Source: Chloroflexia bacterium (GTDB taxonomy: Bacteria; Chloroflexota; Chloroflexia; QHBQ01). From it: a stretch of 64,000 nt of DNA. Location: the NCBI GenBank assembly GCA_038229595.1, contig JBBROH010000001.1, positions 50,633 to 114,632 of the forward strand. The letters are read 5' to 3'. Below are positions 5,475 through 61,914 of the stretch, piece by piece. Position numbers and translations under genes: made by a program. A model generated the notes under the pieces. That model searched no databases. It saw only the letters and a program-made list of their open reading frames with translations, and was not told the origin of the DNA. How positions within the stretch are numbered: position 1 is the first letter of the stretch; each line of letters starts with the position of its first letter.

Positions 5475-6485
5475 CTACTGCCCTCGCTTGCGCCCCAGGC
5501 CGCCGAGCAGCGACTGGCTGATCGTCCTGCCCAGCGTAATATTGCCCAGGTCGCTCTCCAATGCAGCCTGTGCGTCGCTGCGCCCGCTCTTGCGCCACTG
5601 GTCGAAGCGATCCCGCGTCTCGTTGAGGCTGGCGAGCAGTTCGCTGCTGGCCGGGTTATTGGGCTGGTCGGGGTCAGTCTTGGCGATAATTTCGCGCAAT
5701 TCGTAGAGGTCGTTGACGGCGCGATCCAGCCAGGTGAGGATCGCCTGCCGGTTGCTCACGCAAATGTCGCGGTACATGGTAGGGTCGCCCCCGGCCAGGC
5801 GGCTCATGTCGCGGTAGCCGCCCGCCGCCAATCGGCCCATCTCCCCCCAGCCGTCGCTGGCAGTAGTCACGCTGACCAGGCTGCTGGACATCAGGAAGGG
5901 CAGGTGGCTGACGGCGGCCACCGCTATGTCGTGTTCGGCTGGGTCAATGAACAGCGGCTTAGCCCCCAACATCCGAGCGAGGGTGGCAACCTGCTCAATC
6001 GCCTCCTCACTGGCCGAAAGCGTGGGGCAGAGGGGATAACTGGCTGCGTCGAATAGGTCAGCGCGGGCGGCCTCCAGGCTGCCGGTCGCCCCAGCCATCG
6101 GGTGGCCGCCAACGAAGTGGACGGTATTGGGCAACAGTTGATCGGCCCAGCGCAAGACCTGCTGCTTGGTGCTGCCAGTGTCGGTGACTACTGCGCCGCT
6201 GCCGAGGACTGGGCCGAGGGCAGCGAACACCTCGCGCATCGCCAGCACCGGGGTGGCGACGATCACCATGTCGGCGTTCCGCACCGCCGAGCCAAAGTCG
6301 CGGCTGATGCTGCCAACTGCGCCCAACTTGACTGCCAGTTGCGCCCGCTCCAGGTCAGTGTCGTAGCCGATGATCTCGAAGCTGGCCTTGCTCCTACGCC
6401 CTTCCTCCGAAGCCTGCCAGCGGCGCAAACCCAGCCCTATAGAACCGCCGATCAGCCCCAGCCCAATGATCGTAATCTTCGCCAT
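5475..6485 (-). CDS. tyrA: prephenate/arogenate dehydrogenase
   Basis: Rossmann motif KITIIGLGLIGGSIGLGL. Conserved FVGGHPMAG and ...HDIAVAAVSHLPF. Confidence 0.85.
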   Translation of the reverse strand: MAKITIIGLGLIGGSIGLGLRRWQASEEGRRSKASFEIIGYDTDLERAQLAVKLGAVGSISRDFGSAVRNADMVIVATPVLAMREVFAALGPVLGSGAVVTDTGSTKQQVLRWADQLLPNTVHFVGGHPMAGATGSLEAARADLFDAASYPLCPTLSASEEAIEQVATLARMLGAKPLFIDPAEHDIAVAAVSHLPFLMSSSLVSVTTASDGWGEMGRLAAGGYRDMSRLAGGDPTMYRDICVSNRQAILTWLDRAVNDLYELREIIAKTDPDQPNNPASSELLASLNETRDRFDQWRKSGRSDAQAALESDLGNITLGRTISQSLLGGLGRKRGQ

Positions 6486-6706: not shown

Positions 6707-7357
6707 ATGCGTGGAGCGATAGTACGAGAGCAGAGGGCGAATCTGCGGCGGGCGCAGCGTAGGCGTGGCCTTTCGTTTGTGCGCCTGCTGCTGCTGCTGC
6801 TACTGCTGGTCGCTGTGGGCTACGCGCTGATCGTCTGGCAGGTCTACCGGGTGGCCGCTGAGGAGAACGCGCAGGCGGCAGATGTGATCGTCGTTCTCGG
6901 TGCAGCCCAGTGGAACGGCCAGCCTTCACCCGTCTTGCAGGCGCGCCTCGACCACGCTCTTACCCTCTACAATGCAGGGCTGGCCCAGGCGATCATTACC
7001 ACTGGCGGTCTGGGCGACGGCGACCGCTACACCGAGGCCGATATTGCCGCCCGCTATCTAACCCACCGGGGCGTGCCGGTGGAGGAGATCGCCCGCGAGG
7101 AGGAGGGCCGCAATACCTGGCAGAGCCTCTCTGCTGTCAGCGGCATCATGCGCGAGCATGGCTGGCACAGCGCGATCCTGGTCAGTGACCCCTTCCATAT
7201 GATGCGCTCGGCCAAGATGGCAGGCGACCTGGGCATTACCGCCTACACCTCACCCACGCGCACCAGCCCGATCTCTGCCGACCAGGGCTGGGAGGCCCGT
7301 TACGCTCTGCGCGAAGCCGCTTCCTACATCGCATACCTTTTCTCAATTAAGAACTAG
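6707..7357 (+). CDS. YdcF/ElyC (DUF218) family protein
   Basis: N-terminal TM segment, then VIVVLGAAQ...ITTGG...RNTWQSL...ILVSDPFHMMR, typical of DUF218. The exact start is uncertain. Confidence 0.8.
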   Translation: MRGAIVREQRANLRRAQRRRGLSFVRLLLLLLLLVAVGYALIVWQVYRVAAEENAQAADVIVVLGAAQWNGQPSPVLQARLDHALTLYNAGLAQAIITTGGLGDGDRYTEADIAARYLTHRGVPVEEIAREEEGRNTWQSLSAVSGIMREHGWHSAILVSDPFHMMRSAKMAGDLGITAYTSPTRTSPISADQGWEARYALREAASYIAYLFSIKN

Positions 7358-19269: not shown

Positions 19270-19662
19270 TCAACCAGGCTGGCCGCCCAGTTCGCGCTCG
19301 CGGATCGACTTCATGCGGAGAGCGAGGCCGCGCCGATCAATCGGCATTGGCTCGTCGCCCGGCTCTGGCGCACCCAGGTTCTGGCGCGTCTCCGCCGTCT
19401 CGCCATACTGCTCGGCGATCTCGTAGGCCAGTAGAAAGAGGCGGTCGTATTCTTCGGGGCTGGTGTTCAGGCGGGCGATGTGCAACTCCTTGTACGCGCC
19501 CAGGTTGCCCGGCGGTCGGCTGAAGCTGAGACCGGTGATCTCGCTGATGTTCTGCATCATCTCCTCGGCCATGCCCCCTGCCATCGGCTCAAATGCCACC
19601 TCCAGCGTCATCAGCCTGCCCATTTGCACCTTCGTCACTCGGATCGGTGCGTTCATCGCCAT
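19270..19662 (-). CDS. hypothetical protein
   Basis: 130-aa ORF with coding-like composition. No recognisable motif. Confidence 0.5.
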   Translation of the reverse strand: MAMNAPIRVTKVQMGRLMTLEVAFEPMAGGMAEEMMQNISEITGLSFSRPPGNLGAYKELHIARLNTSPEEYDRLFLLAYEIAEQYGETAETRQNLGAPEPGDEPMPIDRRGLALRMKSIRERELGGQPG

Positions 19663-19753
19663 CGTTCGCTCCCCCTTTCGCCCTGTGTCGGCCTATTATA
19701 ACAACTTGGGGCTGCCTTCGGCAAAAAGGCGTAGGCGAAACTAGCGCAAGGGC

Positions 19754-19782
19754 TTGCAAAAGTGGGCATAGTTTGTTATAAT
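19754..19782 (+). promoter_or_regulatory. promoter of tRNA-Ala
   Basis: TTGCAA (19754-19759), 17 nt spacer, TATAAT (19777-19782). The tRNA starts 12 nt downstream. Confidence 0.7.
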
Positions 19783-19793
19783 GGCTCGGCAAC

Positions 19794-19869
19794 GGGGACT
19801 TAGCTCAGTTGGGAGAGCGCAACACTGGCAGTGTTGAGGTCAGGGGTTCGAGCCCCCTAGTCTCCACCA
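19794..19869 (+). tRNA. tRNA-Ala (anticodon GGC)
   Basis: GGGGACTTAGCTCAGTTGGGAGAGCGCAACACTGGCAGTGTTGAGGTCAGGGGTTCGAGCCCCCTAGTCTCCACCA. Has the G3:U70 identity pair. Anticodon loop is CTGGCAG. CCA is encoded. Confidence 0.95.
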
Positions 19870-19875
19870 TCTTTT

Positions 19876-19901
19876 ACGCATCCGCAGGGGTGCGTTTTCT
19901 T
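19876..19901 (+). terminator. intrinsic terminator after tRNA-Ala
   Basis: ACGCA..TGCGT stem followed by TTTTCTT. Confidence 0.6.
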
Positions 19902-19918
19902 CGATAGCAGGCATCGAA

Positions 19919-20195
19919 CAGGAGTAGTAGGCCGTTCCCCACCCAGAGAGTCGGCGGCTGGTGCAAGCTGACAGGGGGGCCGTGAGGTAGGCCGAACTCG
20001 CCTGGGAGCCGCAGCGGTGAGAGCAATCGTAGCCGCAGCCGAAGTTGCGCCCGTTAACGCGCCCTCAAGCGGACGTTTCGCCCGGCAACCGGCCAGGGCT
20101 GATGCGTCAACCAGGGTGGTACCGACGGAGAGCGCATAGCCCTTCGCCCCTGACTCCAGATGTGGAGTTGTGGGTGGAGGGCTGTTTGTTTTGGG
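19919..20195 (+). promoter_or_regulatory. T-box riboswitch leader, leucine specific (CUC specifier), with terminator/antiterminator
   Basis: Stem I: CAGG 19919-22 pairs with CCTG 20001-04, and GGCC 19930-33 with GGCC 19990-93. S-turn AGTAGTA sits opposite GAA-CTC-G (specifier CTC at 19997-19999). AG box AGAGA 19945-49. Distal hairpin with loop GGCTGGTGCAA. F-box CCGTTA 20051-56. T-box GGGTGGTACCG 20114-24 (TGGT can pair with ACCA). A 12-bp terminator stem, 20138-49 with 20172-83, is followed by GTTTGTTTTG. Confidence 0.75.
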
Positions 20196-20271
20196 CTGGC
20201 AAGGGTAGTGTAACCAGTGATTGTCTGTTTGCGTAGATGCAGTAGACCGCTTTGCAGGAGGATTGAGCGTG

Positions 20272-20412
20272 ATGAGCGACGAGGCAAAGGACGAGGCGAC
20301 GGCCATGCGTCCCCAGACGATGGCCCTGGTCTGCCCAGCTTGCCGCTACACGGAGTTGCGGACTTTGAACCCGGAGCGGCTGTATCTCTTAAGTAGCGAG
20401 GAAGCAAGATGA
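20272..20412 (+). CDS. zinc-ribbon array member 0: truncated, single-knuckle paralog
   Basis: AGGAGG lies 7-10 nt upstream. The 46-aa product ends ...LVCPACRYTELRTLNPERL. This aligns with the C-terminal knuckle of the paralogs (VCxxCGYxxLYAxxPxxL) with G replaced by R. No first CxxC. Stop overlaps the next start (ATGA). Confidence 0.45.
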   Translation: MSDEAKDEATAMRPQTMALVCPACRYTELRTLNPERLYLLSSEEAR

Positions 20413-20996
20413 GCAACCAGGATGAACAGGACGAGTACCGCCCTATCGAGGCACCGATGCCGCCGCTGCCACCCGAAGGTAGCAGGCAACAACCAACAGG
20501 CTACGCTGGCCCAGCCTTGCCGCCGTTGCCAGCCCAACCCGCTCGTCCACTCTCGGCTGAGGAAGCAGCGATTGTGGGTCGCTACCAGGCACAAGGAAAG
20601 AAGCTGCTGACGATAGAGGAACTTAGCCGCCAGGCCGCCATTGCTTCCGAGGAAGCCCGCCGGGAGTTGCGGGCAGCCGAGTCGTTCGTGCTGTCAGCCA
20701 CGCCGCCAGCAAGTACACTGCCCCCACCGCTCGCCCCAGTCGTCCCGCTACCCACTCCTGGACCAGCCCGCCGCAGCCAGCGCGACTGTTCGCAGTGTAG
20801 CGGCCCAACCAACCGCGCCAACCTCAACTATGGCAGCCGTACCGTTGGCTACGAAATGGAGTTGACCCCAGTAGACCAAAGCCTCTTTGACTCGCGGCTG
20901 GCGCGGGTGCAGGTTTACGTCTGCGAAGATTGCGGCTACGTTGACCTCTACGCTACCAGCCCAAAGAGCCTGCGGCCCAAGCCGAAGCGGAGGTAA
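20409..20996 (+). CDS. zinc-ribbon array member 1 (long P/A-rich N-terminal extension)
   Basis: N-terminal PMPPLPPE motif, about 135 aa of low-complexity sequence, then CSQC...YVCEDCGYVDLYATSPKSL. Confidence 0.7.
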   Translation: MSNQDEQDEYRPIEAPMPPLPPEGSRQQPTGYAGPALPPLPAQPARPLSAEEAAIVGRYQAQGKKLLTIEELSRQAAIASEEARRELRAAESFVLSATPPASTLPPPLAPVVPLPTPGPARRSQRDCSQCSGPTNRANLNYGSRTVGYEMELTPVDQSLFDSRLARVQVYVCEDCGYVDLYATSPKSLRPKPKRR

Positions 20997-21000
20997 AGTG

Positions 21001-21333
21001 ATGAGCGACAACCCGAAGTACGATCCCGACAACCCGCCGATGCCCGACCTGCCGCCAGAGGACGAGCTTGGTCAGCAGCAGGGTGGCAACTTCTACGAGC
21101 AGATGAACCGAAGGCTGGCAGAACACCGCCCCCGCACTCAACCGGGCGTGCGGCAAGGTGGCTGCTTCGAGTGTGGTGGCCGCATGGTAGAGGGCAAGAT
21201 GAGCAGCTACACTACAGTGCGGGTAGCGGATGGCAACCCCTTCTTCAGTCGTACTTCGGCGGTCAAGGCGTTGGTCTGCACCCGCTGCGGCTTCATCAAG
21301 CTGTACGCGACTGATCCCAGCGTGGTAGAGTGA
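21001..21333 (+). CDS. zinc-ribbon array member 2
   Basis: GGAGG lies 7 nt upstream. MSDNPKYDPDNPPMPDLPPE..., then CFECGG...LVCTRCGFIKLYATDP. Confidence 0.75.
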   Translation: MSDNPKYDPDNPPMPDLPPEDELGQQQGGNFYEQMNRRLAEHRPRTQPGVRQGGCFECGGRMVEGKMSSYTTVRVADGNPFFSRTSAVKALVCTRCGFIKLYATDPSVVE

Positions 21334-21355
21334 GTATCACAAGGAGGCAACCAGG

Positions 21356-21760
21356 ATGAGCAACCGCAACTTCGACCCGAACAACCCCTACTCTGCGCCA
21401 ATGCCGCCGCTGCCAGGCGAAGCGGGCTACAACCAGGCGGGGCCGGACTACAACAACGATGACCTGATCCGTCAGCTAACCCGCAGCAGCACTTCCCCCT
21501 ATGACGTGCAGTCGCAGCCAGCGCAACCCGCCTATGCCGCGCCGCAGCCAGTCCACACGGCAAGTGGCTGTCCAGAGTGCGGTGGCAATATGCTTATCGC
21601 TAACACCCACAGCAACAGTGAGTATCAATTCTACTTCACGCCGCCCGACAAAGGCTTCTTCGACTTCCGCCGCTCCGAGGTGCGGGTGCTGGTCTGCGAG
21701 AACTGTGGCTTTACCAAGTTCTATGCCCTCAGCCCCAGCGAGTTGCGCCCTAAGGAGTAG
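21356..21760 (+). CDS. zinc-ribbon array member 3
   Basis: AAGGAGG upstream. MSNRNFDPNNPYSAPMPPLPGE..., then CPECGG...LVCENCGFTKFYALSP. Confidence 0.75.
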   Translation: MSNRNFDPNNPYSAPMPPLPGEAGYNQAGPDYNNDDLIRQLTRSSTSPYDVQSQPAQPAYAAPQPVHTASGCPECGGNMLIANTHSNSEYQFYFTPPDKGFFDFRRSEVRVLVCENCGFTKFYALSPSELRPKE

Positions 21761-21763
21761 CGG

Positions 21764-22066
21764 ATGAATGATAACCCGAAGTTCGACCCCGACGACGCGG
21801 CCATGCCGCCGCTGCCACTGGAGCAGCCGAGCTTGCTGTCACGTTCGCGCCGCTGCCCTGATTGTAGTGGGGAGATGGTACCTACTCGGCTAGAGGCGGG
21901 AATCGCGGCTGACGGGGTTTACATCGTTCCTAGTGCAGTCGAGCCTTAGGCCAGGCTGGATCGCTACCAGAGTTCCAGCCACTCAACTACCTGCGTAAAC
22001 TGCGGCTACACCAAAGTTTACGCCCGCCGACCTGACCTGATCAAACAGTTCTTTGAAGAAAGGTAA
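21764..22066 (+). pseudogene. zinc-ribbon array member 4, interrupted by an in-frame TAG at 21947-21949
   Basis: MNDNPKFDPDDAAMPPLPLE...CPDCSG...SAVEP[TAG]ARLDRYQSSSHSTTCVNCGYTKVYARRPDLIKQFFEER. Both halves are in the same frame, and the second knuckle lies after the stop. Confidence 0.6.
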
Positions 22067-22071
22067 GTGTG

Positions 22072-22299
22072 ATGAACGAGCAACTGAAGCAAGAACCGAA
22101 GGCGATGGCCTGCCCCAAGTGCGCGGGCAATATGATCGAGCGCGGCTTTATTGACCCTAACAAGGCGGTCTTCAGTCCTGCGCCCGACAAGCTGCAATGG
22201 ACACAGGCACGCACTTCGCCCGCGAAAGCGATGGTTTGCGACCAGTGTGGCTACGCTGAAGTCTACGCCACCCAGCCGGAGAAGCTGCGCGAAAGCTGA
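22072..22299 (+). CDS. zinc-ribbon array member 5 (short form)
   Basis: MNEQLKQEPKAMACPKCAGNMIERGF...MVCDQCGYAEVYATQPEKL. Resembles the minimal DUF2082/Zn-ribbon_13-type proteins as I recall them. Confidence 0.75.
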   Translation: MNEQLKQEPKAMACPKCAGNMIERGFIDPNKAVFSPAPDKLQWTQARTSPAKAMVCDQCGYAEVYATQPEKLRES

Positions 22300-22344
22300 G
22301 CAGGATTGCCGCTGCCAGACCGGGCAGCAGGAAGGATCACCTTG

Positions 22345-23145
22345 ATGAATGCTGACCAGCCGAAACAAGAGGCAAAAGCCACCGCCTGCCCTAAGTGCGG
22401 GGGCGGTATGCTTGAGTGCGGGATCGAGACCAGCAATGCAGTGCAACTGGCTGGCAGCCTGGGGGTGACGCTGGTGCCGCTGGGCAGAGGCATCTTCAAC
22501 AGGCAGCGGTCTGGCATACTTGCGCTGATGTGCGAGCGATGTGGCTACGTTGAGTTGTATGGCGACCCCAGGCAGATCAAGCCGGGTTTAGCGATAGTGA
22601 GGAGCAGAGATGAGAGACAAATACATACCGCAAGATATCGAACCACAGTGGCAGGCGCGTTGGGCCGAACAGCGTATCTACAACGTACCCCAGCCAGCGG
22701 CGGGCGGCCAAGAGGAGCGGAAGTTCTATGTGGCCTCGATGCTGCCCTACCCCAGCGGCGACTTGCACATGGGCCATATGCGGAACTACACTATCGGCGA
22801 TGTAGTGGTCCGCTACCACAGGATGAAGGGGGAGCGGGTGCTGTCGCCGATGGGCTGGGACGCGTTCGGGCTGCCCGCCGAGAACGCTGCGATCAAGGAT
22901 GGCATCCACCCTGCCACCCGCACGCCGAACAACGTGGCCGCGATGAAGCAGCAGTTCGCCAAGATGGGCGCGATGTTCGACTGGGAGCGCGAGGTCAACA
23001 CCTCCAGCCCCGAATACTACCGTTGGACGCAGTGGCTCTTTCTCAAGCTGTATGCGATGGGGCTGGCCTATCGCGGCAAAGGGCTAGTCAACTGGTGTCC
23101 GAAAGACGCGACTGTGCTGGCAAACGAGCAGGTAGTGGAGGGTAA
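22345..23145 (+). CDS. zinc-ribbon array member 6 (short form) with no nearby stop; ORF runs out of frame into leuS
   Basis: [22 protein letters not shown]...[21 protein letters not shown]. Paralog homology ends near 22590. The frame then stays open to 23145 across the leuS start (22610). The functional end is uncertain. Confidence 0.5.
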
Positions 23146-25081
23146 GTGCGAACGCTGCGGCACCGTAGTGGTGCGCCGCAACCTGGAGCAGTGGTTCTTC
23201 AAAACGACAGCCTACGCCCAACGGATGCTCGACGACCTTGACGGTCTAGACGGCTGGCCGGAGCGTGTCCGCACCATGCAGCGCAACTGGATTGGTCGCA
23301 GCGAGGGTGCCGAGGTAGACTTTGCCATCGCTGGCAGTGAGGGCAAGTTCACCGTCTTCACCACCCGGCCCGACACGTTGTGGGGGGCAACCTTCATGGT
23401 GCTGGCCCCCGAACACGCCCTGGTAGAGACGATCACCGCCCCAGAGCGGCAGGCCGAGGTTGCCGCCTACAAGGAGCAGGCCAGCAAGCAGAGCGAGATT
23501 GAGCGGCTGGCGACTGACAAGGAGAAGACGGGGGTCTTTACTGGTGCCTACGCGATCAACCCGGTCAATGGCGCACAGGTGCCAATCTGGATCGCCGACT
23601 ACGTGCTGACCACCTACGGCACGGGCGCGATCATGGCCGTGCCTGCCCACGATGAGCGTGACTTCGAGTTTGCCCGCAAGTTCGGCCTGCCGATCAAGCT
23701 GGTCTACAACACCGAGCCGCCGCAAGATGCTACTACCATGCCCTCTGCTATCCTGCACACTGGCGTGGCGGTGGCGGCTGGCCCCTTCACCGGGCTGCCC
23801 GACGCAGCAGAGACAGTCAGCAAGGTGATCGCCTGGCTGGAAGCGCAGGGGTTCGGCAGGGGTAAGGTTAACTTCCGCCTGCGCGACTGGCTGATCAGCC
23901 GCCAACGCTACTGGGGTGCGCCAATCCCCATCGTCTACTGCGACCACTGTGGGATGCAGCCGCTGCCGCTCAACCAACTGCCGGTCGTGCTACCCCTGGA
24001 TGTGGCGTTCAAGCCGGGCGGCGAGTCGCCCCTCGCCCGCGTCGAGTCGTTCGTCAACACCACCTGCCCGGCCTGCGACGGCCCCGCCCGCCGCGAGACC
24101 GATACGATGGACACCTTCGTGGATAGCTCCTGGTACTTCATGCGCTACTGCGACCCGCAGAACATTGAACTGCCCTTTGACAAGGCGATGGTAGATTACT
24201 GGATGCCGCTGGATCAGTACATTGGTGGGGTCGAACACGCGATCCTGCACCTGATGTATGCCCGCTTCTTCACCAAAGCCCTCTACGACGCAGGTATGAT
24301 CAGCATTAGCGAGCCGTTCACTAAGCTCTTTACCCAGGGCATGGTCTACCTCAACGGGGCGAAGATGAGCAAGAGCAAGGGTAATGTGGTGCCGGTAGAT
24401 GACTTTGTGGCGCGCTTGGGGGCAGACGCGGGGCGCATCTACGTGCTGTTCATGGCCCCACCGACCGACGATAGTGAGTGGAGCGACGCGGGCGCAATCG
24501 GGGCTTCACGCTTCCTGGGTCGTGTCTGGCACCTGCTCGACGAGGGGATCGACCTGCACGCCGCCCGCCCAGCCGCTGCCGACCTGGACAAGGCCGCCCG
24601 CGAGATCGTCGGCCATGCCAACCGCCTGGTAGAACGAGTAGGCAGCGATATCGAACGCTTCCACCACAACACCATCATCAGCGCGTACATGGATTTTGTC
24701 AACAAACTGAGCGATTACCGCGAGCAGCAGGGGCAGACCGCCGCCTTCAACGAGGCCGCTCGCCTGTTCCTGCTGGTTCTCGCCCCCGCCGCCCCACATA
24801 TCGCTGAGGAAATCTGGCAGCGGTTGGGTGGCAAGGGCAGCATCCACCTGCAAGCCTGGCCCAGCGTCGACTCCGCCTTCCTGCAAGCCGAGGAGATGAC
24901 CATTGTGGTGCAGGTCAATGGCAAGCTACGCGACCGCCTGACCCTGCCTGCGGGCATGGACGAGGCAGCAGTAAAGGAAGCAGCCCTGGCCGCCGACAAA
25001 GTGGCCGCCACCCTCAACGGCAGGCAGCCCACCAGCGTCCTCTACGTCCCTGGTAGGCTGGTCAATGTGGTGGTCAAGTAG
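22610..25081 (+). CDS. leuS: leucine--tRNA ligase
   Basis: [15 protein letters not shown]-terminus. HMGH (HIGH-type) motif. CP1 zinc knuckles. KMSKS motif ([10 protein letters not shown]). 823 aa. GAGGAG RBS. Confidence 0.95.
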
Positions 25082-25095
25082 AGGAGGTGGGGAGG

Positions 25096-25890
25096 ATGGA
25101 GCTAGAGGGGCTGATCGTGCAGGTGCAGGAGAGTGGCAAGTACCGGGCGGTCAGCCCTGAGCTTGTGCGCCAGCTTGCCGCGCAGGAGGCGGCGAAAGGG
25201 CGCAGCGTGAAGGAGACGGTGAAGGCGATCCGCAACCGCCTGCATCAGGTGGGCGGTGCCTACCTCGAAGCGGGTACTGACTACGACCGCTGGCTGGCGA
25301 GCTTGCAGGCAGCAGAGGGGCGGGCCAGCTTGCTGGCAGCCTGCCGGGAGGTGCTGCGCCACCACGCCTCGACCCGCGAACGCCTGCCGATCCTCGACCA
25401 GTTCTACGCCACCGTGCTGGCTGGCCTACCGCCGCTACGCTCGGTGCTAGACGTGGCTTGCGGCCTCAACCCGCTGACGATCCCCTGGTTGCCGCTGGCT
25501 GCCGACGCACTCTACTACGCCTGCGACATCTACGCCGACATGGTGGCCTTCCTCAACGCTAGCTTCCCGCTGCTCGGCGTGCAGGGAGCCGCCAGCCAGT
25601 GCGACCTGACCCAGACGATCCCCACTACCGAAGCGGACATTGCCTTCATCCTCAAGACGATCCCCTGCCTTGAGCAGGTGGACAAGGCGGCGGGCCGCAG
25701 GCTGCTGGATGGCCTGCGCGCCCGCTGGCTGCTCGTCTCCTTCCCCACCCGCAGCCTGGGCGGGAGGAGCAAGGGCATGGGCGCGAGCTACGAGGCACAC
25801 TTCAACGCCCTGGTTGCTGGGCGCGGCTGGCAGGTCGCTCGCTTTGAGGTCCCCGGCGAACTCGCCTTCCTGGTAGACAAGCAGCCCTGA
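25096..25890 (+). CDS. 16S rRNA (guanine1405-N7) methyltransferase family protein (Rmt/ArmA/FmrO-like)
   Basis: Aligns by eye with the RmtB sequence as I recall it: GKYRAVSPELVR, HASTRERLP, LDVACGLNPL, ILKTIPCLE, VSFPTRSLGGRSKGM. Confidence 0.85.
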   Translation: MELEGLIVQVQESGKYRAVSPELVRQLAAQEAAKGRSVKETVKAIRNRLHQVGGAYLEAGTDYDRWLASLQAAEGRASLLAACREVLRHHASTRERLPILDQFYATVLAGLPPLRSVLDVACGLNPLTIPWLPLAADALYYACDIYADMVAFLNASFPLLGVQGAASQCDLTQTIPTTEADIAFILKTIPCLEQVDKAAGRRLLDGLRARWLLVSFPTRSLGGRSKGMGASYEAHFNALVAGRGWQVARFEVPGELAFLVDKQP

Positions 25891-25891
25891 G

Positions 25892-26596
25892 CTAGCTGCC
25901 GCAAGGTCGGTGGATAGTCAGGCCGGGGTACTCCTGTAGCAACTGCTCCTCGCTCTGGAACCAGCGCAGGTTGTCGGCCTTGATGCTGTGCCAGCCGGGG
26001 TCGTCGGCACAGTAGTAGTATTTGCGTGACTTGCTGCTAACCACGTAGCGACCAGGGGCCGCGGTCGGCACGGTGGTTTCGGTCGCCAGCGGTTTAGGCG
26101 TGCGGGTGGCGGTTGCGCTGCTGGTCGGCCTGGGTGTGCGGGTGGCGGTCGCGGTGCTGGTTGGCCTGGGTGTACGAGTGGCAGTCTCGGTGCTGGTCGG
26201 CCTGGGCGTGCGCGTAGGCTTGGCGGTGGCAGAGGGCTTTGGCGTAGAAGTGAGTTTAGCAGCGGGCGGCGGCCTGGTGGTACGGGTGGCCTTGGCCTGG
26301 GCTGGCTCGTTGCGGGCGGTCTGCTGCTCGCCGCTCTCCGTCGCTTCGTTGGTGGCGGCAGGCTGCTCTGCGCTGGTTGCCGTAGCAACGGCTGCTTCGT
26401 CCGTTGCTGGCCCAGGGTTGGGCGCAGTGGGGTTGTCTGGGGCAAAGGTGGGCAGCAGGAGGATCGGCTTGAGGTCGGGGCTGAGGGTGGGCGCAGCCGT
26501 CGCAGCGACCCCTGTTGGGCTGGGCATAACAGGCGCGGCCTGGTCGCAGGCAGTGAGCAACAAGAGGAGCATCAGGCAACCGAGGGTGCAGCGCAT
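25892..26596 (-). CDS. lipoprotein with T/P/R-rich repeats and a C-terminal Cys-containing domain
   Basis: Lipobox LLLLTAC. ATRTPRPTS repeats. C-terminus KYYYCADDPGW...NLRWFQSEEQ...PC. Confidence 0.7.
   Translation of the reverse strand: MRCTLGCLMLLLLLTACDQAAPVMPSPTGVAATAAPTLSPDLKPILLLPTFAPDNPTAPNPGPATDEAAVATATSAEQPAATNEATESGEQQTARNEPAQAKATRTTRPPPAAKLTSTPKPSATAKPTRTPRPTSTETATRTPRPTSTATATRTPRPTSSATATRTPKPLATETTVPTAAPGRYVVSSKSRKYYYCADDPGWHSIKADNLRWFQSEEQLLQEYPGLTIHRPCGS
26097..26204. repeat. 36-nt tandem coding repeat x3 (plus degenerate copies)
   Basis: Units at 26097-26132, 26133-26168 and 26169-26204 encode the TATRTPRPTS(T/S)A repeats. Confidence 0.85.
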
Positions 26597-60801: not shown

Positions 60802-60840
60802 AACCGCCGCTCTACACCTCCCCGCTTCCAGTAAACAGCA

Positions 60841-60873
60841 AGAGCGCACCGCAAAAGGGTGCGCTCTTTTGCT
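60841..60873 (+). terminator. intrinsic terminator
   Basis: AGAGCGCACC / GGTGCGCTCT 10-bp stem followed by TTTTG. Confidence 0.65.
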
Positions 60874-60891: not shown

Positions 60892-61914
60892 TCAGCGTTC
60901 GATGTTACCAAAGGTGTCGCGGGTGGTACCGGCTGCGTCCTTGCTGCTAACCTGGTTGGGGTCGGCAGCGGCGCGGGCGGGCGCATTACTGTTGTCAATG
61001 TAGCCACCTGCCTGGTTCACCGCGTCGCCTACCGTGCTGGCTGCGTCGGGTTGGTCGGTGCGGAGGCTCTCGCTGGCGGTATAGCTGCTGGTTGCGGCGT
61101 ACTGCGAACCAGTGGTGGTCTTGGCGTAGTCTGCGCCACCTTCGGAGCCAGCCAGCCCAGCATTGCCCATCGCGGCATTGCTGGCGGCGGCATAGATCGC
61201 TTCCTGATCGCGCAGGGCGGGGTCGTGTGCATCGAAGTAGTTGGCGGCGGGGTTGTTGCCTGCCTCTATCTCGCTAGCCGGGTAGACCCCACCAGAGAGC
61301 GCATCGCTGGCGACCATCGTCGGGCTGACAGCAGTCATCCTGCCACTGGCGGTGCTACCAATCCCTGCATTGCCATCGGTCAATGCACGGCTGCTGCCCA
61401 CGCGGTTCTGCACATCCTCAGCCCCAGCATCAAGCAAGATGCGGCGGGTAGCAGCCTCGTCCTGACCCGCAGGGTCAACGGTGAGTAGGATACCACCCTC
61501 GCCTACTGCTGTCTGGTAGTATTGTGCCTCCTCGGATGGCACACCCGCATTGGTCAGGCTGCCCAGCAGCCCCCCTGCGACGGCCCCGGTTGCCGCGCCA
61601 ATGCCAGCCCCAGCAGCAGTCCAGGCCAGTGCGCTACCCGCAAGGGCGATTGGGCCGAGAATCGGCAGGGTGAGGATGGTGCCGGTGGCGATCAGAGCGG
61701 CCAGTGCGCCACCAACGACGGTGCCTTCGACGGCACCCGCCCCAGCGACAGCACCAGCGTCGGTCACATCGTTGTCAGCGGCCATTGCCTTGCTGGTGTT
61801 GCGGTTTTGGGCAACTACGCCAATCTTGCTCGCATCATAGCCAGCCGCCTTCAGCTCGCTGATTGCTTGCTCGGCGGCACTCTCAGTGCGGAACAAACCT
61901 ACTACAGTAGCCAT
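60892..61914 (-). CDS. YflT-like general stress protein with membrane-embedded G/A-rich core and disordered tail
   Basis: N-terminus MATVVGLFRTESAAEQAISELKAAGY. GVPSEEAQYYQTAVGEGGILLTV motif. GAGGAGG RBS at start 61914. Confidence 0.7.
   Translation of the reverse strand: MATVVGLFRTESAAEQAISELKAAGYDASKIGVVAQNRNTSKAMAADNDVTDAGAVAGAGAVEGTVVGGALAALIATGTILTLPILGPIALAGSALAWTAAGAGIGAATGAVAGGLLGSLTNAGVPSEEAQYYQTAVGEGGILLTVDPAGQDEAATRRILLDAGAEDVQNRVGSSRALTDGNAGIGSTASGRMTAVSPTMVASDALSGGVYPASEIEAGNNPAANYFDAHDPALRDQEAIYAAASNAAMGNAGLAGSEGGADYAKTTTGSQYAATSSYTASESLRTDQPDAASTVGDAVNQAGGYIDNSNAPARAAADPNQVSSKDAAGTTRDTFGNIER

Follow-up and report, generated by a model that had tools for sequence, protein, structure and literature searches.

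A predicted leucine T-box leader downstream of a tRNA-Ala(GGC) gene and upstream of a zinc-ribbon gene array and leuS in a deeply branching Chloroflexia bacterium

The 64-kb stretch of a Chloroflexia bacterium contig analysed here (the window) carries on its plus strand, upstream of the leucyl-tRNA synthetase gene leuS, an element that by its sequence appears to be a functional-looking Leu T-box of transcriptional class I. It is very likely a canonical attenuating T-box specific for tRNA-Leu(GAG), located before a predicted operon of zinc-ribbon (Zn-ribbon) genes, leuS, and an FmrO-family methyltransferase gene, and may well be read from the promoter of a tRNA-Ala gene. The riboswitch itself is textbook; its context is new, namely a predicted T-box-controlled tandem array of Zn_ribbon_13-like genes, a leader without a recognisable promoter behind a tRNA gene, and an apparently undescribed linkage with tRNA-Ala(GGC). 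The comparative finding on tRNA-Ala is the lead most worth following.

Identity, anatomy and conservation of the leader

Using Infernal with permissive filters, the RF00230 model was aligned end to end (model positions 1-219) with positions 19905-20154 at 70.1 bits (E = 4.2e-15 in a 701-nucleotide (nt) search and 3.8e-13 over the whole window). The first-pass annotation of this region had listed the T-box elements from the letters alone, and within the full-length match they were recovered in the same order, at or close to the positions it gave. Stem I contains an S-turn specifier loop (AGUA/GAA), in which the strand AGUAGUA (19924-19930) lies opposite GAA-CUC-G (19994-20000), a specifier codon followed by a purine, an AG bulge (AGAGAG, 19945-19950), and a distal loop (UGGUGCAA, 19959-19966; wider segment GCUGGUGCAAGC, 19957-19968). 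The Infernal alignment continues with Stem II, the IIA/B region with the F-box CCGUUA (20051-20056; CGUUA motif), and the RRRNG-Stem III-AA motif as defined previously (PMC7778990). The T-box sequence CAGGGUGGUACCG (20112-20124), with the core GGGUGGUACCG (20114-20124), places a UGGN bulge in the antiterminator, and the 3' strand of this structure also forms part of a terminator with a U-run behind it. Leu T-boxes are known to use CUC as specifier (PMC2494555), and this codon agrees with the presence of leuS in the same co-oriented string of genes. The specifier, the motifs, and the homologous leuS leaders described below thus concur with the earlier assignment to Leu (CUC) T-boxes of the transcription-terminator type.

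The terminator stem (-36 kcal/mol, z = -6.6) comprises 13 + 8 bp separated by a single internal mismatch, about 21 bp in total and not the 12 bp first proposed. The antiterminator alone was folded at -14.3 kcal/mol, and this weakness agrees with expectation because such a structure needs the tRNA to form. Its 3' strand UUCGCCCCU (20143-20151) lies within the 5' strand of the terminator, and both Infernal and RNAfold close it by pairing AGGG (20113-20116) with CCCU (20148-20151). The logic of the AGGG-CCCU competition suggested in the first pass is therefore retained, with a corrected register: CCCU had been placed at 20140-20143, and both positions belong to the terminator 5' strand.

The leader was compared with those of related loci. 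Loci L081-L084 (NCBI GCA_043754535.1 and three metagenomes) share about 92% DNA identity with the window and are fully syntenic. The LeuS proteins of L085 and L086 are 67% and 65% identical to that of the window, and L087 contains the next-best LeuS match by bit score. Loci L001-L080, obtained by a LeuS scan of genome contigs, served as the baseline, with relatives at most 57% identical among the matches listed. The source organism is deeply branching: LeuS identity outside its own genus does not exceed 67%, and the nearest named LeuS proteins (57-59% identity) are from metagenome-assembled genomes (MAGs) labelled 'Chloroflexia bacterium'.

Full-length T-boxes upstream of leuS were found by Rfam in L081 (80.5 bits), L083 (80.9 bits), L086 (59.5 bits), and L087 (50.0 bits), all from G+C-rich genomes and all carrying the same GAA-CUC-R specifier. 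In an alignment of four leaders (window, L081, L086, and L087), GAA-CUC-R, AGAGAG, CGUUA, CAGGGUGGUACCG, and CUUCGCCCCUG were invariant; the purine after CUC varied between G and A across the four lineages, and CUC itself was fixed. None of the 42 substitutions between the window and L081 in 19857-20306 fell within the diagnostic motifs, and three of them (19969, 20169, and 20175) turn G.U into G-C pairs in Stem I and the terminator. Every aligned leader has a terminator with a U-run, and the stems differ by structure-preserving changes; the overlap of terminator and antiterminator is kept in L086 and L087 with changes of the same kind. Compensatory pairs among the leaders are few, and the independent sequences are too few for covariation statistics.

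The Rfam gathering score for RF00230 is 93 bits, and the first-pass annotation had named a score below it as grounds for refuting the T-box. Formally, the match falls on that side (70.1 < 93), the one feature that would suit a decayed, non-functional relic. Such a relic is nevertheless extremely unlikely, as the functional motifs are all intact and invariant across four lineages, the substitutions are limited to variable loops or preserve pairing, and the terminator/antiterminator overlap persists in L086 and L087. The low score is attributable to the high G+C content, the 37-nt Stem III, and differences in Stem I length, and low-GC homologues of the leader reach 119-133 bits against the same model. 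The gathering score is a poor test here, given a full-length match with E = 4e-13, all motifs, and homologous leaders. For annotation, this means that the Rfam gathering threshold misses the window leader and its G+C-rich relatives.

The statement of the first pass that the leader region has no plausible coding frame was borne out. A 149-amino acid (aa) minus-strand open reading frame (ORF) overlapping the leader was rejected as non-coding: substitutions relative to L081 were distributed 8/17/17 over codon positions 1/2/3, and indels relative to this 92%-identical sequence shift its frame. The Rfam search of 20150-22750 detected no second T-box or other RNA family near leuS. A second exact GGGTGGTACCG at 60921-60931 gave no RF00230 signal and was dismissed as a chance match; a bidirectional terminator-like hairpin closely precedes it (60840-60870), and it falls within the 3'-terminal part of a minus-strand ORF.

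The leuS operon and its zinc-ribbon genes

The leader had been noted as lying 2.4 kb from leuS instead of directly in front of it. As a description, this is correct; the implied oddity dissolves because the interval is a co-oriented seven-gene array of the same predicted operon. Seven paralogous small ORFs (copies A-G) on the same strand fill it, all genes from the leader to leuS are co-oriented with intergenic gaps of -4 to 45 nt, and the consensus scan of 20200-22610 revealed no plus-strand promoter-like or terminator-like site. Judged from this layout, the T-box would stand directly before its operon, as T-boxes usually do. The FmrO-family gene that follows leuS is probably the last gene of the leuS unit and would be under Leu T-box control if co-transcribed with it. 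This gene, of an aminoglycoside-resistance methylase family, is conserved in L081 and not in L085 or L086.

The distance from the T-box core to leuS is 166 nt in L087, 424 nt in L086, 2496 nt in the window, and 2822 nt in L081; in eight unrelated leuS loci with the core motif, it is 79-285 nt. The leader in L087 directly precedes leuS, and in L086 one Zn-ribbon gene lies between them. The 2.4 kb in the window would accordingly be due to the insertion of a small Zn_ribbon_13-like gene between the leader and leuS and its tandem amplification, with some copies now decaying. Two other arrangements were observed in this interval: a 225-aa ORF between the Leu T-box and leuS in L066, and an inverted repeat of about 23 bp (CGGCTAGCGGATTCGTAAAAGCG / CGCTTTCACGAATCCGCTAGCCG) at 163-185 and 281-303 of L085, between the Zn-ribbon gene and leuS.

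It is quite unlikely that the T-box controls the Zn-ribbon array alone, or nothing useful, and that an internal promoter near 22300-22600 drives leuS. The length of the array would fit such a promoter, the interruption of copy E and the run-on of copy G past the leuS start would be more easily tolerated with it, and the 45-nt spacer between copies F and G is the least conserved segment (80% identity). Against it stand the absence of any plus-strand sigma70-like site in 20200-22610, the tiny intergenic gaps, a specifier that matches leuS, and the leaders of L087 and L086, which precede leuS directly or with one small gene between.

The array proteins share a motif of two CxxC knuckles, CPxCGG ... 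CxxCG(Y/F)xx(L/V/F)Y, and four of them (B-E) have a Pro-rich N-terminal extension, M-S/N-D-N-P-K-x-D-P-x-x-P-x-M-P-P-L-P. In L081, copy E is an intact gene of 100 aa with TAC (Tyr) in place of the in-frame TAG. Having lost its stop, copy G extends to 23145 and overlaps the beginning of leuS in another frame (by about 540 nt); an intact 81-aa copy G (P0126) occurs in contigs of other strains, and a 1-nt deletion inside G (at about 8671 in L081) is common to L081-L084. Copy numbers are 0 in L087, 1 in L086, at least 1 in L085, 7 in the window, and 8 in L081. The extra unit of L081 (102 aa, 6912-7220) is missing in the window between 20996 and 21001, and the change apparently resulted from recombination between the repeated N-terminal coding segments. 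The array thus expands and decays between species. A hidden Markov model (HMM) of the core matched only the leader-leuS interval among 90 loci and the window; the rest of the window and the 80 baseline loci gave no match.

The ratios of nonsynonymous to synonymous substitution rates (dN/dS) between the window and L081 were 0.17-0.34 for copies B-F, with an excess of third-position changes, compared with 0.08 for leuS and 0.15 for the FmrO-family gene as controls. Copies B-F are therefore real genes under purifying selection. The small ORFs might instead be junk duplications that act as a long spacer, in line with the decay of copy A, the nonsense codon in E, the lost stop of G, the frameshift of G common to L081-L084, and the variable copy number. 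That interpretation is very unlikely in view of the dN/dS values of copies B-F and their excess of third-position changes, the four invariant Cys of every ribbon, the 685 representative homologues across metagenomes, and the retention of one copy in L086 and L085.

Sequence comparison suggests that the array proteins are a divergent branch of Zn_ribbon_13 (PF09855, DUF2082). The scores were 24.2 bits for copy G, 21.4-22.0 for F, 18.2 for D, and 14.1 for B, with a Pfam cutoff of 23 bits; C and E gave no match. Of the 48 closest homologues, 22 matched PF09855 at E<1e-3, and an exhaustive profile search retrieved the 685 homologues at E<=1e-3, mostly of 60-110 aa. The four Cys are invariant in every full-length copy, giving the two CxxC pairs of a Zn ribbon of about 60 aa. 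AlphaFold predicts a Zn ribbon of three strands; the predicted local distance difference test (pLDDT) value is 93 at each of the two knuckles and averages 74.6. A metagenome scan with copy F returned matches from the L081 species alone.

Several candidate leads to the function of these proteins were rejected. Foldseek against PDB returned generic ribbons only (ribosomal proteins, RPB9/TFIIS, and Rpr2; best E = 0.32), and the Pfam match to Anti-TRAP covered only 11 residues (E = 0.07). No adaptation to leucine starvation through Leu-poor proteins was apparent (Leu 3.9-11.0%, background median about 10%, no consistent bias), and the use of CUC codons in the array showed no consistent bias either. 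A general link of the family to T-boxes was discarded as well, the distant member P0128 having no T-box or leuS nearby. The placement of a Zn_ribbon_13/DUF2082-like family under tRNA-Leu charging control would provide its first testable functional lead.

Transcription from the tRNA-Ala promoter and the proposed mechanism

The T-box mechanism is established for the family, and we infer it for the window leader by analogy. The transcript would most likely start at the tRNA-Ala(GGC) promoter and pass a leaky hairpin, yielding a co-transcript of tRNA, leader, and mRNA. The specifier CUC in Stem I would pair with the anticodon of tRNA-Leu(GAG), the platform of AG bulge and distal loop would stack on the tRNA elbow, and UGGU of the T-box bulge would pair with the uncharged ACCA end (A73). 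This pairing would stabilise the weak antiterminator (20112-20152) against the stronger terminator (20137-20184 and the U-run). With charged tRNA-Leu, transcription would end at about 20190, and with uncharged tRNA-Leu, it would read through into one operon of copies A-G, leuS, and the FmrO methyltransferase gene.

The only plus-strand promoter-like site in 19400-25400 is that at 19754-19782, before the tRNA-Ala gene, which is 100% identical in L081. Divergent TG-extended TATAAT promoter-like sites occur in 19695-19782, the plus-strand one serving tRNA-Ala and the minus-strand one a 130-aa ORF (19270-19662). The hairpin after the tRNA gene may act as a leaky terminator or mark a processing site. 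The leader match begins about 10 nt after this hairpin and UUUUCUUC, with Stem I at 19911, and the gap between the tRNA-Ala(GGC) gene and Stem I is 36-67 nt in the window, L081, L086, and L087. In agreement with the first-pass annotation, no sigma70-like promoter was detected by the consensus scan in the segment from the tRNA-Ala terminator to Stem I; the tRNA-Stem I spacers of L081 (about 35 nt) and L087 (63 nt) likewise contain no promoter-like site. The T-box leader of the window thus follows a tRNA gene and lacks a recognisable promoter of its own. With the tRNA linkage of other leuS loci described below, transcription of the leader from the tRNA-Ala promoter appears the most economical reading, and we favour it with modest confidence.

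A non-consensus promoter of the leader's own, located within the tRNA-Ala 3' end or directly behind it, is a real possibility, if not a probable one; the adjacency of tRNA and T-box would then be inherited synteny and would imply no shared transcript. TTCAAA-18-TATAAT over the tRNA 3' end in L086 and the hairpin with U-run after the tRNA in both the window and L081 speak for this arrangement. Conversely, the spacers of the window and L081 (35 nt) and of L087 (63 nt) lack a promoter-like site, the window reads TCTTTT/CTTTTA at the -10 position of L086, and in five other lineages, the tRNA lies inside the leader and is necessarily co-transcribed with it.

Several observations weigh against the mechanism proposed above. 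Rfam in gathering mode listed only the two tRNAs of the window and did not report the leader (70.1 < 93 bits). ARAGORN found no tRNA-Leu(GAG) gene in the 64-kb window, and the cognate pair is thus a predicted one. The hairpin with U-run after the tRNA could end most transcripts, the promoter-like site overlapping the tRNA 3' end in L086 makes a separate leader promoter possible in at least one lineage, and a non-consensus promoter within 19870-19905 is possible in the window. Finally, the nonsense codon in copy E and the stop loss in copy G could cause polarity or disturb leuS initiation, and these lesions fit awkwardly with leuS relying solely on the leader transcript.

Linkage of tRNA-Ala(GGC) with leuS and comparison with known systems

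In total, 11 plus-strand tRNAs were found within 3.2 kb upstream of leuS in L001-L080, and 10 of them were tRNA-Ala (nine GGC and one CGC). In L005, L008, and L038 (Syntrophomonadaceae) and in L025 and L066 (Chloroflexota), the loop of Stem III in the Leu T-box contains the tRNA-Ala(GGC) gene, flanked by GAGCG-GACAAA and UUUGUC-AA-T-box sequence. Rfam places the tRNA within the T-box match in L005, L008, L025, and L066. The alignments of L005 (133.2 bits) and L008 (119.3 bits), both above the gathering score, show the tRNA as a 75-91-nt insertion in Stem III, and the same embedded layout was identified in L038 by sequence and nhmmer. Since the tRNA is inside the leader in these five loci, it must be co-transcribed with the riboswitch there, which supports co-transcription of tRNA and leader in the window. 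L025 also contains a second T-box at 1187-1468 (86.7 bits), apparently with a UGG (Trp) specifier and unrelated to leuS.

Among independent leuS T-boxes, five have no tRNA, five have an embedded tRNA, and four lineages have the tRNA just 5' of Stem I. Four further loci (L030, L041, L052, and L056), from Solirubrobacterales and a Chloroflexi MAG, have no detectable T-box and carry a co-oriented tRNA-Ala(GGC) gene 117-2199 nt upstream of leuS. Because synteny is kept in these T-box-less loci, the tRNA-Ala(GGC)-leuS linkage is broader than the riboswitch. The association of tRNA-Ala(GGC) with leuS T-boxes itself extends across phyla. No description of a tRNA-Ala(GGC)/Leu-T-box linkage, including embedding in Stem III, was found in the searchable literature.

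A joint reading of these data, which is doubtful at present, would regard tRNA-Ala(GGC) and the leuS Leu T-box as an old composite unit. The tRNA would have moved 5' of Stem I in the clade of the window, where it supplies the only promoter. In that clade the T-box would also have captured and amplified a Zn_ribbon_13 gene, and the Zn_ribbon_13 products would be leucine-starvation effectors or accessory proteins of leucyl-tRNA synthetase or tRNA, not passengers. In Syntrophomonadaceae and some Chloroflexota, the tRNA embedded in Stem III would arise from all leader transcripts, whether or not they are terminated. If the embedded leaders are functional, Stem III can accommodate an entire tRNA, and riboswitch leaders could serve as tRNA expression vehicles as well.

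The order of elements in the window leader is that of the transcriptional T-boxes of RF00230 (e.g., Bacillus subtilis leuS and ilv-leu, CUC specifier): Stem I (K-turn region, S-turn loop GAA-CUC-R, AG bulge, and distal loop), Stem II, IIA/B with the F-box, RRRNG-Stem III-AA, a T-box with UGGU, and a terminator overlapping the antiterminator. As in that class, the operon includes the cognate synthetase. Unlike that class, the window leader scores below the threshold, has no recognisable promoter of its own, and lies about 36 nt after a tRNA-Ala gene, and leuS is the eighth ORF of the operon instead of the first.

In streptococci, certain T-box-controlled aminoacyl-tRNA synthetase operons contain an additional gene, labelled 'tRNA-ligase-related hypothetical' (Wels et al. 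2008, PMC2494555). There, as in the window, small genes with no assigned function share the T-box transcript with the synthetase; in the window, however, the extra gene is Zn_ribbon_13-like, present in 7-8 tandem copies upstream of the synthetase, and restricted to one deep-branching clade. Like the small 'nucleic-acid-binding' Zn ribbons of PF09855, the window copies have a core of 60-70 aa with two knuckles, CPxCGG ... CxxCG(Y/F)xE(L/F)Y, but most fall below the Pfam cutoff, and four carry the Pro-rich extension (DPxxPxMPPLP). Tandem amplification of PF09855-like genes under a T-box was found only in the clade of the window.

The thrU-tyrU-glyT-thrT-tufB operon of Escherichia coli is a mixed tRNA-mRNA operon with one promoter, from which the tRNAs are excised by processing. 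The tRNA and the downstream message of the window would similarly share one promoter; unlike in the thrU-tufB operon, the message begins with a riboswitch sensing another tRNA (Leu), and the co-transcription is proposed from the arrangement of the genes. In B. subtilis, rtpA encodes Anti-TRAP, a small zinc-binding protein, in an operon under a Trp T-box. It is listed among T-box-controlled genes (PMC2494555). Both systems have a small Cys4 zinc protein downstream of a T-box responding to uncharged tRNA, whereas the Zn ribbons of the window have no sequence relationship to Anti-TRAP and no known target, and a regulatory role is not indicated for them.

The coordinates of the features are listed in Table 1.

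Table 1. Features of the leader, the leuS operon, and the embedded-tRNA leaders of other loci (window coordinates unless a locus is named).
Feature	Position	Strand	Basis and remarks
Sigma70-like promoter, TTGCAA-17-TG-TATAAT (TG-extended)	19754-19782	+	Consensus scan; same arrangement in L081
tRNA-Ala(GGC), encoded CCA, G3:U70 pair	19794-19869	+	ARAGORN; Rfam tRNA 64.8 bits
8-bp hairpin (ACGCAUCC/GGGUGCGU), then UUUUCUUC	19876-19903	+	-12.7 kcal/mol, z = -3.25
T-box leader, RF00230 span	19905-20154	+	Infernal and four-leader alignment; limits of sub-parts approximate
Stem I	19911-20009	+	Infernal alignment
Specifier codon CUC (Leu)	19997-19999	+	Preceded by GAA, followed by a purine (G in the window, A in L081)
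Stem II	20012-20038	+	Infernal alignment
IIA/B region with F-box	20039-20058	+	Infernal alignment
AAGCG-Stem III-AA	20067-20110	+	Infernal; AAGCG-[GAC...GUC]-AA
T-box sequence and antiterminator	20112-20152	+	Infernal alignment
Intrinsic terminator	20137-20195	+	Hairpin of about 21 bp (20137-20184), then U-run UGUUUGUUUUG
Copy A, decayed	20272-20412	+	C-terminal half motif LVCPACRYTEL only; frame not kept in L081
Copy B, 195 aa, long Pro-rich N-terminal extension	20409-20996	+	dN/dS 0.23
Copy C, 110 aa	21001-21333	+	dN/dS 0.34
Copy D, 134 aa	21356-21760	+	dN/dS 0.17
Copy E, interrupted	21764-22067	+	In-frame TAG 21947-21949; dN/dS 0.28
Copy F, 75 aa, core only	22072-22299	+	dN/dS 0.17; best conserved, 95% aa identity to L081
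Copy G, stop lost	22345-22590	+	TGA>TTA at 22588-22590
leuS (leucyl-tRNA synthetase, 823 aa)	22610-25081	+	Pfam, comparison with LeuS homologues
FmrO-family 16S rRNA methyltransferase	25087-25890	+	PF07091, E = 1.3e-67; 5 nt after leuS
Embedded-tRNA leader, L005	9670-9953		
Embedded-tRNA leader, L008	142-427		
Embedded-tRNA leader, L038	about 5955-6240		
Embedded-tRNA leader, L025	6882-7251		
Embedded-tRNA leader, L066	653-1134		

Two minor observations were made outside the operon elements. On the minus strand of the window, 25892-26596 contains a 234-aa ORF with tandem 'TATRTPRPTS(T/S)' repeats, which are out of register relative to L081. The called 1055-aa 'LeuS' of L087 (6214-9381) has an internal direct duplication of about 230 aa, which is probably an assembly artefact.

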